Sequence record: MN158214.1
Reading direction: 5' to 3' (one strand)
Origin: Escherichia phage BEBK14
DNA: 50,853 bases
The first letter of the stretch is position 1. Each line of letters begins with the position of its first letter. Made by a program: the position numbers and the translations under genes. The notes under the pieces were generated by a model. It was not told the DNA's origin and ran no database searches. It saw nothing but the letters and a program-made list of their open reading frames with translations. Positions 7,055-10,647 of the stretch are shown here, in pieces.

Positions 7055-7094
7055 GATTAGCGAGAATCCATCGTTATCACTTCCTTTATGCTTA

Positions 7095-7118
7095 CCCCGC
7101 TACGCGGGGTTTTTTTTT
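7095..7118 (+). terminator. rho-independent terminator
   Basis: CCCCGCTACGCGGGG followed by T9. Confidence 0.7.
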
Positions 7119-7183: not shown

Positions 7184-9145
7184 ATGGCAATTTATCGCAA
7201 AGGTCAAGCGTCAATGGACGCTCAAGGCTATATAACTGGCTACGGGACGAACTGGCGTGAGCAGTTAACGCTGATCCGTTCCGGCGCAACCATTATTTTT
7301 CTGACTCAGCCGCTACAGGCCGCAGTTATCACCGAAGTGGTCAACGATACTAGCATTCGAGCAATCACCACTGGTGGTGCTGTTGTTCCCCGTTCAGACT
7401 ACATAATCTTGCTTCATGACTCGTTAACTGTTGATGGCCTGGCGCAAGACGTAGCGGAAACATTGCGCTACTACATGGGGAAAGAGTCGGAGCTTGCTGG
7501 ATTTATTGAGATCATCAAGGATTTTGATTGGGATAAGTTACAGAAGATCCAAGAAGACGTAAAGACAAATGCTGACGCAGCAGCAGCAAGCCAGCAGGCA
7601 GCTAAAACCAGCGAGAATAACGCGAAGACAAGCGCAACAAATGCAGCGAATAGCAAGAAAGGCGCTGATACTGCAAAGGCTGCCGCTGAATCCGCGCGCG
7701 ACGCTGCAAACACTGCAAAGACTGGCGCTGAAGCAGCAAAGTCTGGCGCTGAATCCGCGCGTGACGCTGCGAACACTGCAAAGGCAGGAGCTGAAAGTGC
7801 GCGAGATCAAGCGGAGGAATACGCAAAGCAGGCCGCAGAACCTTACAAGGACTTATTGCAACCGTTGCCGGACGTGTGGATACCATTTAATGATTCCCTG
7901 GATATGATTACCGGATTCTCGCCGTCATACAAAAAGATTGTCATAGGTGATGATGAGATCACGATGCCAGGTGACAAGATTGTTAAGTTTAAACGTGCAT
8001 CAACCGCTACTTACATTAACAAATCAGGTGTTTTTACAGTTGCAGCAATTGATGAACCACGTTTTGAAAGAGATGGATTGCTGATTGAAGGGCAGAGAAC
8101 AAACCATATGATTAATGCTTCAACTCCTGCTGGTTGGGGTCGCTCAGCTTCTGTGCAAGTGACAGCGAATACAGATTCATTTGGATTTCTTTATGGTCGC
8201 TTCGCTCCAGATCAGTCTACTGTTGGCAAAACAGATGCGCTAAACCTTGCATCTGTTATTTCTAATCACAGCCTTGATACATCTGGCAATGAAAAAAATG
8301 TTACTGCTTCATGCAGATTTAGATCAGATAAAGATGTTAGATTGAGGGTAAGATTTGCCGCTGGCGATGATATTGGTAGTATAGCATTCGCTGGAGATGC
8401 TTACATAAAACTTAAAGATCTTTCAGTTCAAAAAACTGGAGGTGCTGCAAACAGAATTAATGTTGAGGTTTACACTGATGATCTTGCTGGATGGAATATT
8501 GCAATTGTTACATTCCAGGCAATAAAAAATAAGGTAAACGCTCAGTTTCAAATATCTCCAGTCTCTGCTTATGCCGAAGGTGATTATCTTGAATTGTCAA
8601 CCCCTCAAGTTGAATTGGGATCTGGTGCTTCTTCTTATATTCAATCAGGTACGACACCAGCCACAAGGGCAAGCGATATGGTTACAGTGCCAATAAAAAA
8701 CAACCTTTACAATTTGCCGTTTACAGTTCTTGTGGAGGCTCATAAAAACTGGAGTAGAACGCCAAATGCTGCGCCTCGTGTTTTCGATACTGGAGGTCAT
8801 CAATCTGGTGCGGGAATTATTCTTGCTTTCGGGTCTGCCGAAGGCGATGCTGATGGATTCCCTTATTGCGATATAGGTAAATCAAACAGAAGGGTTAACG
8901 AGAATGCGAAACTAAAAAAGATGATCATAGGAATGAGAGTAAAGAGTGATTACAATACTTGTTGTGTAAGTAATGCCAGAATATCAAGCGAAACAAAAAC
9001 GGAATGGAGATATATAGTATCAACGGCTACTATAAGGATTGGCGGACAAACAAGTACAGGCGAACGCCATCTTTTCGGGCACGTTAGAAACTTCCGTATA
9101 TGGCACAAGGCGCTAACAGATCATCAATTGGGGGAAATTGTTTAA
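7184..9145 (+). CDS. tail fibre protein
   Basis: Ala/Lys-rich coiled-coil repeats (AESARDAANTAK x2) followed by large beta-rich C-terminal domain. Confidence 0.55.
   Translation: MAIYRKGQASMDAQGYITGYGTNWREQLTLIRSGATIIFLTQPLQAAVITEVVNDTSIRAITTGGAVVPRSDYIILLHDSLTVDGLAQDVAETLRYYMGKESELAGFIEIIKDFDWDKLQKIQEDVKTNADAAAASQQAAKTSENNAKTSATNAANSKKGADTAKAAAESARDAANTAKTGAEAAKSGAESARDAANTAKAGAESARDQAEEYAKQAAEPYKDLLQPLPDVWIPFNDSLDMITGFSPSYKKIVIGDDEITMPGDKIVKFKRASTATYINKSGVFTVAAIDEPRFERDGLLIEGQRTNHMINASTPAGWGRSASVQVTANTDSFGFLYGRFAPDQSTVGKTDALNLASVISNHSLDTSGNEKNVTASCRFRSDKDVRLRVRFAAGDDIGSIAFAGDAYIKLKDLSVQKTGGAANRINVEVYTDDLAGWNIAIVTFQAIKNKVNAQFQISPVSAYAEGDYLELSTPQVELGSGASSYIQSGTTPATRASDMVTVPIKNNLYNLPFTVLVEAHKNWSRTPNAAPRVFDTGGHQSGAGIILAFGSAEGDADGFPYCDIGKSNRRVNENAKLKKMIIGMRVKSDYNTCCVSNARISSETKTEWRYIVSTATIRIGGQTSTGERHLFGHVRNFRIWHKALTDHQLGEIV
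7685..7783. repeat. 63-bp period direct repeat inside tail-fibre gene
   Basis: GCTGAATCCGCGCG(C/T)GACGCTGC(A/G)AACACTGCAAAG at 7685..7720 and 7748..7783. Confidence 0.7.
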
Positions 9146-9423
9146 TGCGTGATTTAACATTAAAATTTGCAGACAAGGCCGATTTTTCGGCCTTTTTAGG
9201 AAAAATTAATTGGGATGATAACGAATCCATTCAGGATGCAATCCTGCTCGATGTAATCGGCAATACTTACACAGTAATTGCACGATCTGACGATGGCGAT
9301 GAGATTGCGCGAAAGAACGACGGCTATTTCGTCAATGTGCGAATCATTGATGATAAGTTTGATGCCGTAATTTTTAACGGCTACGTGGTTGAGTTAGATC
9401 AGCCGATTAGAGAATGGGCTTAA
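9145..9423 (+). CDS. hypothetical protein (fibre-associated?)
   Basis: ATG overlaps stop of fibre gene (TAATG). Confidence 0.4.
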   Translation: MRDLTLKFADKADFSAFLGKINWDDNESIQDAILLDVIGNTYTVIARSDDGDEIARKNDGYFVNVRIIDDKFDAVIFNGYVVELDQPIREWA

Positions 9424-9435
9424 GGAGTTAGGAAA

Positions 9436-10131
9436 ATGGCTACAGTAACTGTTATACCTACTGATATAACGAAGCTGAAAAATGATGTTTCTACGATAAA
9501 ACAGGATGTTTCGACACTAAAGCAGGATGTCGCCGGAAAAGCATCAACTACTGATGTTGACAATAAGTTGAAACCGTATCTAAAACAAACTGATCTATCA
9601 TCCGAGTTGAGTAGCGGAAGGTATAGTGGGAGTTTTTACCCCCTAACTGGTAACGATGCATTTTATTTATTTAATATTAACACAACCGCTCAATCAGCAA
9701 ACTTATGGCTTGATCCAAATGCTGGAGTGTCGCAAGTTTTACGCTCCACTTCCTCTTCTCGTTATAAGAGCAGCGTAGAATCGGTTATTGATGAATATGC
9801 GGATCTGATGCTTGAAATGCGTCCTGTGTGGTATCGGTCAACTTGTGAAAGCGACCGTAAAGATTGGGGATGGTACGGACTGATTGCAGAGGAAGTTGGA
9901 GAGGTTGCGCCGGAGTACGTTCACTGGCGACCGCTGCAAGAAGGAGAAGATCCTGCCATTGCTTCAAGTAATGGCATGGTGGCGGAAGGCGTTATGTATG
10001 ACCGCCTCACTGTTCCACTGATTCACCACGTCAAGAATCTGAAAGCGGAAAATGAGGAGATGAGAAAAGAAATTGACGAGCTAAAAGCGGTTGTAGCGGC
10101 ACTGGTAAACAAACCAACCACGTTAGACTAA
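9436..10131 (+). CDS. short fibre-like protein with C-terminal intramolecular chaperone (peptidase S74-like) domain
   Basis: N-terminal heptad repeats; C-terminal segment (GLIAEEVGEVAPEYV...MYDRLTVPLIHHVKNLKAENEEM) resembling endosialidase-chaperone domains. Confidence 0.5.
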   Translation: MATVTVIPTDITKLKNDVSTIKQDVSTLKQDVAGKASTTDVDNKLKPYLKQTDLSSELSSGRYSGSFYPLTGNDAFYLFNINTTAQSANLWLDPNAGVSQVLRSTSSSRYKSSVESVIDEYADLMLEMRPVWYRSTCESDRKDWGWYGLIAEEVGEVAPEYVHWRPLQEGEDPAIASSNGMVAEGVMYDRLTVPLIHHVKNLKAENEEMRKEIDELKAVVAALVNKPTTLD

Positions 10132-10137
10132 AAAAAT

Positions 10138-10159
10138 GCCCCGCATATGCGGGGCTTTT
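10138..10159. terminator. bidirectional rho-independent terminator
   Basis: GCCCCGCATATGCGGGGC flanked by A-run and T-run, between convergent genes. Confidence 0.65.
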
Positions 10160-10163
10160 GTTA

Positions 10164-10610
10164 TCAGAATGGAATGTCGTCGTCAAAATTCATTGGCGGC
10201 TGATTGCTTTTCTGTGGTTGCTGGCGAGGATGCTGCTGTTGCGGTTGCCCCCATCCACCTTGATTCTGCTGTTGCTGCTGTCCTTCGGTGCGCTGGCTGA
10301 ATACCAGTCGTGGTTGTTCCATCTGCAACGTTACGTAGTTGTTACCGTTATGCTCGCGCTGGTTGATGCGTAGAACTTCCGCAGAGATGGAAACGACTTT
10401 ACCAACCTGCAACGCGTTATCATACCACTGACGCATTGCATCGCTTGATGCGAAGAACGTTGCGCTATAGTTTGAATATATCCGTTCACCACTCTGTTTG
10501 TCTTTAATAGACTCCGACAATTCCACAATATACATCTTGTAAGCGCCGGAGTTGCTTTGTCCTTCTTTTGTGTATGGCTCTTTTCGGATCGTTCCTGTGA
10601 CTACGTGCAT
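10164..10610 (-). CDS. ssb: single-stranded DNA-binding protein
   Basis: OB-fold-like N-terminus, Gln/Gly-rich linker and acidic C-terminal tail DDDIPF; AGGAG RBS before ATG at 10610. Confidence 0.75.
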   Translation of the reverse strand: MHVVTGTIRKEPYTKEGQSNSGAYKMYIVELSESIKDKQSGERIYSNYSATFFASSDAMRQWYDNALQVGKVVSISAEVLRINQREHNGNNYVTLQMEQPRLVFSQRTEGQQQQQNQGGWGQPQQQHPRQQPQKSNQPPMNFDDDIPF

Positions 10611-10631
10611 TTTGTTTTCTCCTATGAAAAT

Positions 10632-10647
10632 GGGGCGCAAGCGCCCC
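10632..10647 (-). terminator. hairpin, terminator candidate between Erf and SSB
   Basis: GGGGCGCAAGCGCCCC followed by T-rich tract on minus strand. Confidence 0.45.

Follow-up and report, generated by a model that had tools for sequence, protein, structure and literature searches.

A short Peptidase_S74 protein of Escherichia phage BEBK14 as a putative minimal distal subunit of a composite lateral tail fibre

The genome of the T1-like Escherichia phage BEBK14 (sequence record MN158214.1), analysed here as a single stretch of 50,853 nucleotides (hereafter, the window), encodes a 231-residue protein with a C-terminal Peptidase_S74 domain, the product of the third and last gene of a tight operon in which it is preceded by the genes for a 653-residue lateral tail fibre protein and a 92-residue protein. 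We propose that this short protein probably forms the lateral fibre's distal subunit in a minimal version: it would trimerise via its own intramolecular chaperone (IMC) domain, cleave itself between T105 and S106 and persist as a 105-residue stub on the proximal fibre. Most likely, it represents the shortest known form of a swappable fibre tip piece. The closest relatives of the phage are classified in the genus Warwickvirus (Drexlerviridae, Tempevirinae), and the gene family is common and already annotated rather than an oddity; a 99%-identical protein carries the label 'chaperone of endosialidase'.

Domain anatomy and conservation of the 231-residue protein

The C-terminal region of the protein is an IMC domain of the Peptidase_S74/ICA type that belongs to a divergent subfamily. 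The Pfam profile PF13884 (Peptidase_S74) aligns with residues 106-162 over positions 1-57 of its 58 positions and scores 22.5 bits (E = 1.4e-4), just above the gathering score of 22, so that the match is marginal when taken alone. We accept it because an invariant sequence motif, a profile-profile match and a structural hit support the same assignment. The hhalign comparison with sibling distal fibres that themselves score 47-54 bits against S74 yielded a probability of 97% (E = 8.5e-11) and placed S106 and K111 on the invariant Ser and Lys of these canonical siblings. Across the alignment of 29 homologues, no sequence departs from S106, S107, Y110 and K111, which lie within the likewise invariant motif R103-S-T-S106-S-x-R-Y-K111, and T83, T84 and R103 never vary, even in long fibres. 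The monomer predicted by AlphaFold2 (AF2) is confident over approximately residues 113-225, with block-mean confidence scores (pLDDT) of 77-94 over approximately 121-220 and a helix at 188-224. The best Foldseek hit of this model was the ICA domain of MyRF (7dc3; E = 2e-4, probability 1.0, TM 0.56-0.60 by target), followed by the IMC domains of GA-1 gp12 and endoNF (3gud, 3gw6) with E-values of 0.3-0.7 that are individually non-significant; all of these fold matches are those of a monomer model. Furthermore, residues 7-217 align with the last 218 positions of the 1385-position fibre profile phrog_3299, indicating that the same module also terminates long fibres. The search of NCBIfam returned no model for either the S74 protein or the 92-residue protein. 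The initial annotation, made from the sequence alone, had described a short fibre-like protein consisting largely of a self-cleaving-type chaperone domain, and this description is borne out: the S74 profile, the Ser-Lys cleavage dyad and the structural likeness to IMC domains were all recovered, and the domain makes up more than half of the protein.

The part that precedes the cleavage site consists of an N-terminal peptide, a coiled coil and a short tip. The N-terminal heptad repeat noticed earlier (DVSTIKQDVSTLKQDV) is real, with a 21-bp tandem repeat beneath it at positions 9484-9530 (2.2 copies, 84% matches, score 66 in Tandem Repeats Finder, TRF) and hydrophobic residues at positions 11, 14, 18, 21, 25, 28 and 32 of the protein, that is, in the 3-4 spacing. 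The number of heptads varies in relatives through in-frame steps of 42 or 63 nt inside the repeat, which give rise to proteins of 224, 231 and 245 residues. Whole-heptad differences from window positions 9436-9540 are seen even among near-identical Warwickvirus phages, two of which encode the 245-residue form (L088 and L091) and one the 224-residue form (L089). The coiled coil is separated from the cleavage site by no more than about 45 residues (60-105); in the sibling fibres, this stretch comprises approximately 150-400. A sizeable receptor-binding head between the shaft and the chaperone, as in distal subunits of the type of IrisVonRoten Gp24, was not found in the 231-residue protein, which is therefore classed as a minimal variant and not as a typical member of this group.

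Purifying selection is evident in every region of the gene. The ratio of nonsynonymous to synonymous substitution rates (dN/dS), estimated by the Nei-Gojobori method, is 0.1-0.3 overall, with dS reaching saturation between lineages, and in the informative comparisons by region it is lowest in the IMC core (0.06-0.10, in deep comparisons), with values of 0.08-0.44 in the tip and 0.16-0.42 in the N-terminal coil. Between BEBK14 and the Hanrivervirus KarlJaspers, dN is 0.36 in the tip and 0.12 in the IMC domain, so that the tip evolves about three times faster. The prophage form of the gene is present in 746 of the 5,426 complete E. coli genomes, with at least 80% of the gene covered in 740 of these. 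Lytic Drexlerviridae show the same length class, and between lytic and temperate phages, whose proteins are 55% identical, the architecture of approximately 230 residues is preserved. As a separate observation, the S74 gene is split into two open reading frames (ORFs) in four relatives, orkinos, JLBYU19, JLBYU10 and brachmannus (L092, L096, L094 and L095), where the indels (C5 to C6, +CC, and A4 to A3) fall at the window-equivalent positions 9639-9643, ~9686 and ~9583. Because these are homopolymer indels of one or two bases at three different sites, and one of the records is marked UNVERIFIED, the splits probably are sequencing or assembly errors rather than signs of pseudogenes.

A recurrent fibre cassette with an exchangeable third slot

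The genomic context was surveyed in 80 IMG/VR loci retrieved via the 92-residue protein and in additional phage loci. The gene order fibre, 92-residue protein, S74 protein is the same in five phage and prophage loci (L003, L004, L005, L007 and L093) and in the IMG/VR loci of class A, and the cassette recurs in Drexlerviridae, T5-like phages, Queuovirinae and lambdoid prophages. In the lambdoid PhiR49_1, the order is J, lom, stf, a gene for a 93-residue protein and a gene for a 234-residue protein, and the three products of the window are 46% (the C-terminus of the fibre, compared to Stf), 53% (the 92-residue protein) and 55% (the S74 protein) identical to their PhiR49_1 counterparts. The same arrangement is found in an E. 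coli prophage, where it adjoins an integrase, in Hanrivervirus, and in the T5-like phages IrisVonRoten and mar004NP2.

The key comparison concerns the beginning of the third gene. In approximately 50 loci, the gene that follows the 92-residue protein gene begins with a shared peptide, for which the N-terminal consensus is M-x-T-x-T-x-I-P-x-D-I-x-x-L-K. This peptide is present in every class-A gene located 3' of the 92-residue protein gene, and the motif was not used as a filter in finding these genes. Residues 1-15 of the window protein, MATVTVIPTDITKLK, recur at the N-terminus of IrisVonRoten Gp24 (574 residues) and of the 'ltfB orthologue' of mar004NP2 (589 residues), as well as in the metagenomic fibres P0067-70 (319-333 residues), which carry a different head; in the comparison with Gp24, 17 of 33 N-terminal residues are identical (pairwise E = 2e-5). 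For the large distal fibre homologues of Wifcevirus and Gordonclarkvirinae, the match begins no earlier than residue ~28-49, so that the N-terminal segment is specific to phages that possess this proximal module.

Beyond the shared peptide, the contents of the third slot are diverse. Approximately 26 loci encode proteins of 221-245 residues with an IMC domain of the TSSxRYK type, about 13 encode proteins of 330-351 residues with a canonical SDRDLK S74 domain recognized by Pfam, and 3-4 encode proteins of 574-589 residues; most third-slot proteins bear an S74 IMC domain of their own. In a few loci, the slot protein has trimerisation domains of the T4-like Gp34/gp37 kind, and a separate gene for a Caudo_TAP chaperone comes next, as exemplified by L039, in which the T4-like domains replace the IMC domain and the subsequent gene scores 96.9 bits against Caudo_TAP.

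The separate fibre gene that the initial annotation had reported is confirmed, and its functional association with the 231-residue protein is retained here. The 653-residue fibre consists of a Drexlerviridae-specific N-terminal anchor, an Ala-rich coiled coil and a C-terminal module of approximately 430 residues that is common to the side fibres of T5-like and lambdoid phages. Residues 167-653 are 61% identical to the proximal fibre Gp22 of IrisVonRoten but the N-termini differ, so that these proximal fibres join a lineage-specific anchor to a shared distal module. The homologous fibre of mar004NP2 is annotated as 'confirmed structural protein by MS' (mass spectrometry). Within the fibre, residues 300-496 (positions 8081-8671) match the NCBIfam model NF048003 (GTA_spike_fiber; 56.5 bits, cut-off 36), and residues 601-648 (8984-9127) show a weak Laminin_G_3/ConA-like match (E = 0.0085), in agreement with the domain of IrisVonRoten Gp22 that has been called 'galectin-like'. 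The Ala-rich coiled coil contains a 63-bp tandem repeat at 7655-7796 (2.3 copies, 83% matches), and relatives annotate a repeat_region there.

The 92-residue protein is encoded in 144 phage records, including T1-like, T5-like, Queuovirinae, Dhillonvirus and lambdoid phages, and in nearly all surveyed loci its gene directly follows the C-terminal module of the proximal fibre, even where there is no distal gene. Its AF2 model has a pLDDT of 87.6, and comparisons with known structures and families returned no informative match.

In lambdoid prophages, the cassette, or the 92-residue protein gene where the distal gene is missing, is directly followed by a gene for a hydrophobic protein of approximately 97 residues (MDISPLLHALCAVAAQ...), found at 7716-8009 of L003, 7007-7300 of L052, 6292-6585 of L031 and in 30-odd other prophage loci; this protein has no match in Pfam and is absent from the window.

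The features of the operon and its surroundings are listed below. The unit at 7184-10131 has terminator-like hairpins on both sides, and the downstream one looks like a bidirectional terminator at which the fibre operon and ssb, encoded convergently, would both end. In the window, the S74 gene and ssb are separated only by this terminator, unlike in KarlJaspers (L004, 5836-7660), where four extra genes, including one for a 'putative sugar-binding protein', lie between them.

Table 1. Features of the lateral fibre operon of BEBK14 and its flanks (window coordinates)
Feature	Position	Strand	Remarks
Terminator-like hairpin between primase gene and fibre operon	7094..7110	+	7-bp stem with 6 G-C pairs, then T-run; from a pattern scan, consensus match only
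Lateral tail fibre, proximal subunit, 653 residues	7184..9145	+	phrog_1419, E = 7e-214
92-residue partner protein	9145..9423	+	phrog_1361, E = 4e-35; start overlaps fibre stop (TAATG)
Ribosome-binding site AAGGAG of the S74 gene	9422..9427	+	read from the sequence; 8 nt before ATG, overlaps stop codon of the 92-residue protein gene
S74/IMC protein, 231 residues	9436..10131	+	ATG ORF; proposed as distal subunit of minimal size in the lateral tail fibre
N-terminal peptide MATVTVIPTDITKLK, residues 1-15	9436..9480	+	proposed docking element
Heptad coiled-coil segment, residues 11-33	9466..9534	+	TRF and 3-4 hydrophobic spacing
Pre-cleavage tip, residues 60-105, predicted strand-rich	9613..9750	+	aligns just before the IMC domain in longer fibres
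Predicted autoproteolytic site, scissile T105|S106, general base K111	9748..9768	+	codons ACT TCC ... AAG
IMC domain, residues 106-231	9751..10128	+	alpha/beta core and long C-terminal helix (188-224)
Bidirectional intrinsic-terminator-like hairpin	10138..10155	.	perfect 7-bp G+C stem GCCCCGCATATGCGGGGC, 7 G-C pairs, T-runs on both strands
ssb gene, convergent with the fibre operon	10164..10640	-	

Proposed assembly and alternative explanations

Under the scenario that we favour, the C-terminal IMC domains would bring three chains into register, after which the strand-rich tip and the heptad coil (residues ~11-58) would fold as a trimer. Correct folding would then trigger autoproteolysis of the T105-S106 bond by S106 and K111 and release of the chaperone, leaving on the virion, at the end of the 653-residue fibre, a mature stub composed of the docking peptide, the coiled coil and the tip. 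The N-terminal peptide may mediate the attachment to the proximal fibre, with the 92-residue protein possibly positioned at the junction. The stub would lengthen the fibre by approximately 10 nm, the exact length being set by the number of heptads, and would provide a terminal surface that might be either a small glycan-binding tip or a structural cap.

Several observations weigh against this scenario or parts of it. The tip, at 45 residues, is very small for a receptor-binding domain, and the AF2 monomer has low pLDDT in the tip and is unreliable over residues 1-112. The repeat of the 245-residue relatives contains the IPxDITKLK motif twice, so that the motif could be a repeat element of the coiled coil instead of a dedicated docking peptide. 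The Pfam match is, as noted, marginal by itself; sequence search of the 231-residue protein against the Protein Data Bank (PDB) returned only coiled-coil noise, and search of the PDB with the family profile yielded no match to any solved IMC domain. Virion proteomics of swan01, a close relative, detected five proteins, none of them from this locus, although the data set is too shallow to decide. Finally, the 37 surveyed loci in which the proximal module and the 92-residue protein gene are present with no S74 gene after them, the hydrophobic protein gene described above being directly next, are prophage regions, and their fibres are not known to be functional.

One alternative is that the stub docks and is processed as proposed but only seals or stabilises the fibre end, with receptor contact left to the lectin-like C-terminal domain of the proximal fibre. 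The absence of a distal subunit from the 37 loci suggests that some fibres can do without it; the C-terminal ConA/galectin-like domain of the proximal fibre might itself be a receptor-binding domain (PMC11990801); and a tip of such a size that is fairly conserved, with three residues (T83, T84 and R103) that do not change even in long fibres, would suit a cap. A pure cap, however, has no obvious need for a variable number of heptads, and the threefold faster evolution of the tip compared to the IMC domain is not what such a role would predict. Moreover, in T5 pb1, the surface that is uncovered by the release of the IMC domain is the proposed receptor site (PMC4690869). We therefore regard a cap devoid of receptor function as unlikely.

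The initial annotation suggested that the phage might carry accessory fibres, and the fibre-like nature of the protein stands. As a separate fibre, anchored elsewhere on the tail, in the collar or the tip complex, the protein would possess the complete minimal anatomy, from the N-terminal peptide through the coiled coil and the tip to the IMC domain, and several sets of fibres are common in phages (PMC8594841). Nevertheless, the synteny and the shared N-terminal peptide fit the slot of a distal subunit, which makes the tip of the same fibre the more likely location. The peptide occurs only 3' of this proximal module, in T1-like, T5-like, lambdoid and Queuovirinae phages with unrelated tails, suggesting a docking site on the co-transferred module rather than on tail proteins particular to each lineage. 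In addition, the large equivalent in a T5-like phage has been modelled on the proximal fibre (PMC11990801). An independent short fibre thus appears very unlikely.

Another suggestion of the initial annotation, a minimal trimerisation/chaperone module, would, if the module acted on the other fibre, make the protein a trans-acting assembly factor for the 653-residue fibre that is not a virion component. Relatives are annotated as 'putative lateral tail fiber chaperone' or 'chaperone of endosialidase', the gene is placed, like lambda tfa, directly after the fibre genes, and no chaperone domain can be recognised in the 653-residue fibre itself. These points are outweighed by the 37 loci, where the fibre module and the 92-residue protein gene exist with no S74 gene after them, which makes a trans-acting role unlikely. 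Furthermore, S74 domains are documented to act in cis on the polypeptide from which they are cleaved (PMC4690869), the same slot holds full receptor-binding fibres with their own IMC domain or their own Tfa, and the 231-residue protein retains the cleavage dyad, the pre-cleavage tip and the N-terminal peptide of genuine fibres, with no match to Caudo_TAP (PF02413) or any other chaperone family in Pfam (E up to 1) or NCBIfam. We accordingly consider this role highly improbable.

The least plausible explanation, which had also been raised in the initial annotation, is that a longer fibre gene has decayed and left this remnant, which would now be functionless: the entire ORF matches only the C-terminal end of the phrog_3299 fibre profile and the gene is split in four relatives, but the low dN/dS with dS up to saturation, the length class kept by lytic as well as temperate phages and by the prophage form in 746 E. 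coli genomes, and the homopolymer site of every frameshift led us to reject it.

Given the minimal distal subunit as the preferred interpretation, a broader and distinctly more tentative possibility is that the N-terminal consensus peptide, together with the ~430-residue proximal module and the 92-residue protein, constitutes a 'plug-and-socket' system that operates across phage families, with the 231-residue protein as the minimal functional receptor-binding plug. If so, T1-like, T5-like, Queuovirinae, Dhillonvirus and lambdoid phages would exchange distal receptor-binding subunits, and the reach of the 105-residue tip would be tuned by gain and loss of heptads. Side-fibre specificity could then be engineered on such a system, as a small and portable scaffold, by swapping receptor-binding tips.

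The main practical gain is in annotation. Dozens of phage records label this gene a 'chaperone', and hundreds of E. coli genomes a 'tail fiber domain-containing protein'. The present evidence assigns its product to a composite side fibre, as the subunit at the tip. Genes with the same N-terminal peptide in KurtStettler (H175) and HMD-P4 (H172) likewise bear the label 'putative lateral tail fiber chaperone', so that distal fibre subunits may be systematically mislabelled as chaperones. Should the docking peptide and its socket be confirmed, they would define a compact module common to very different coliphages, and the 231-residue protein would become a very small model for IMC-assisted folding of a trimeric fibre.

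Relation to known fibre systems

The present results do not overturn the current understanding because fibres with IMC domains (T5 pb1, the K1F endosialidase and GA-1 gp12) and two-part lateral fibres (LtfA/LtfB of DT57C and Gp22/Gp24 of IrisVonRoten) are well documented. What appears to be undescribed in the searchable literature is that the class of ~230-residue proteins fills the slot of the distal subunit, along with the conserved N-terminal peptide common to proteins of different sizes and to several phage families, the almost constant association between the proximal module and the 92-residue protein gene, and the variation in the number of heptads. Functional data on the short form were not found in the literature, nor was any mention of BEBK14.

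The closest counterparts are Gp24 of IrisVonRoten (Bas32) and its orthologue in vB_Eco_mar004NP2 (PMC11990801; PMC6563131). Gp24 was modelled in the second BASEL paper as a distal fibre carried by the proximal fibre Gp22, the C-terminus of which includes the galectin-like domain (PMC11990801). These proteins and the window protein occupy the same slot after the proximal fibre and the 92-residue protein, follow homologous proximal C-terminal modules and share the N-terminal peptide (MVTKTVIPTDITKLKNE...) and a C-terminal S74 IMC domain. They differ in that Gp24 and its orthologue (574-589 residues) contain two large receptor-binding domains, one Gp12-like and the other T5-like, where the window protein has only the coil and the short tip, and in that the IMC domain of the latter is divergent, with TSSxRYK in place of SDxRLK and 22.5 instead of 47 bits in Pfam.

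A precedent comes from DT57C, in which LtfB would dock on LtfA via a conserved N-terminus of approximately 45 residues, forming a composite fibre (PMC4728585). Like the window protein, LtfB of DT57C and DT571/2 (PMC4728585; PMC10713586) is a second fibre protein with a C-terminal autocleavable chaperone (pfam13884), but it is a receptor-binding protein of full size whose role in host recognition is backed by genetic evidence, and LtfA bears an IMC domain, unlike the proximal fibre of the window.

With respect to the chaperone itself, T5 pb1, the endosialidase of K1F and GA-1 gp12 (3gw6, 3gud; PMC4690869) share with the window protein an alpha/beta chaperone with a C-terminal helix at the extreme C-terminus. 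The scissile bond of T5 pb1, Thr1263-Ser1264, and Lys1269 (PMC4690869) correspond to T105-S106 and K111 of the window protein, where the Lys likewise follows the scissile Ser by five residues. The chains with solved IMC structures show no detectable sequence similarity to it, and their mature parts exceed 900 residues, compared to 105 here. The Arg 'folding sensor' of T5 pb1, Arg1250 at position -14, has no obvious counterpart, and the invariant Arg of the present family is R103 at position -3.

Finally, lambda-type Tfa proteins (Caudo_TAP) are, like the 231-residue protein, encoded immediately 3' of the side tail fibre gene, and the L039 sibling of the cassette indeed employs a Caudo_TAP protein. 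The window protein is nevertheless distinct from them, as it lacks similarity to Caudo_TAP and combines the anatomy of a fibre with a protease-chaperone domain of the cis-acting kind.

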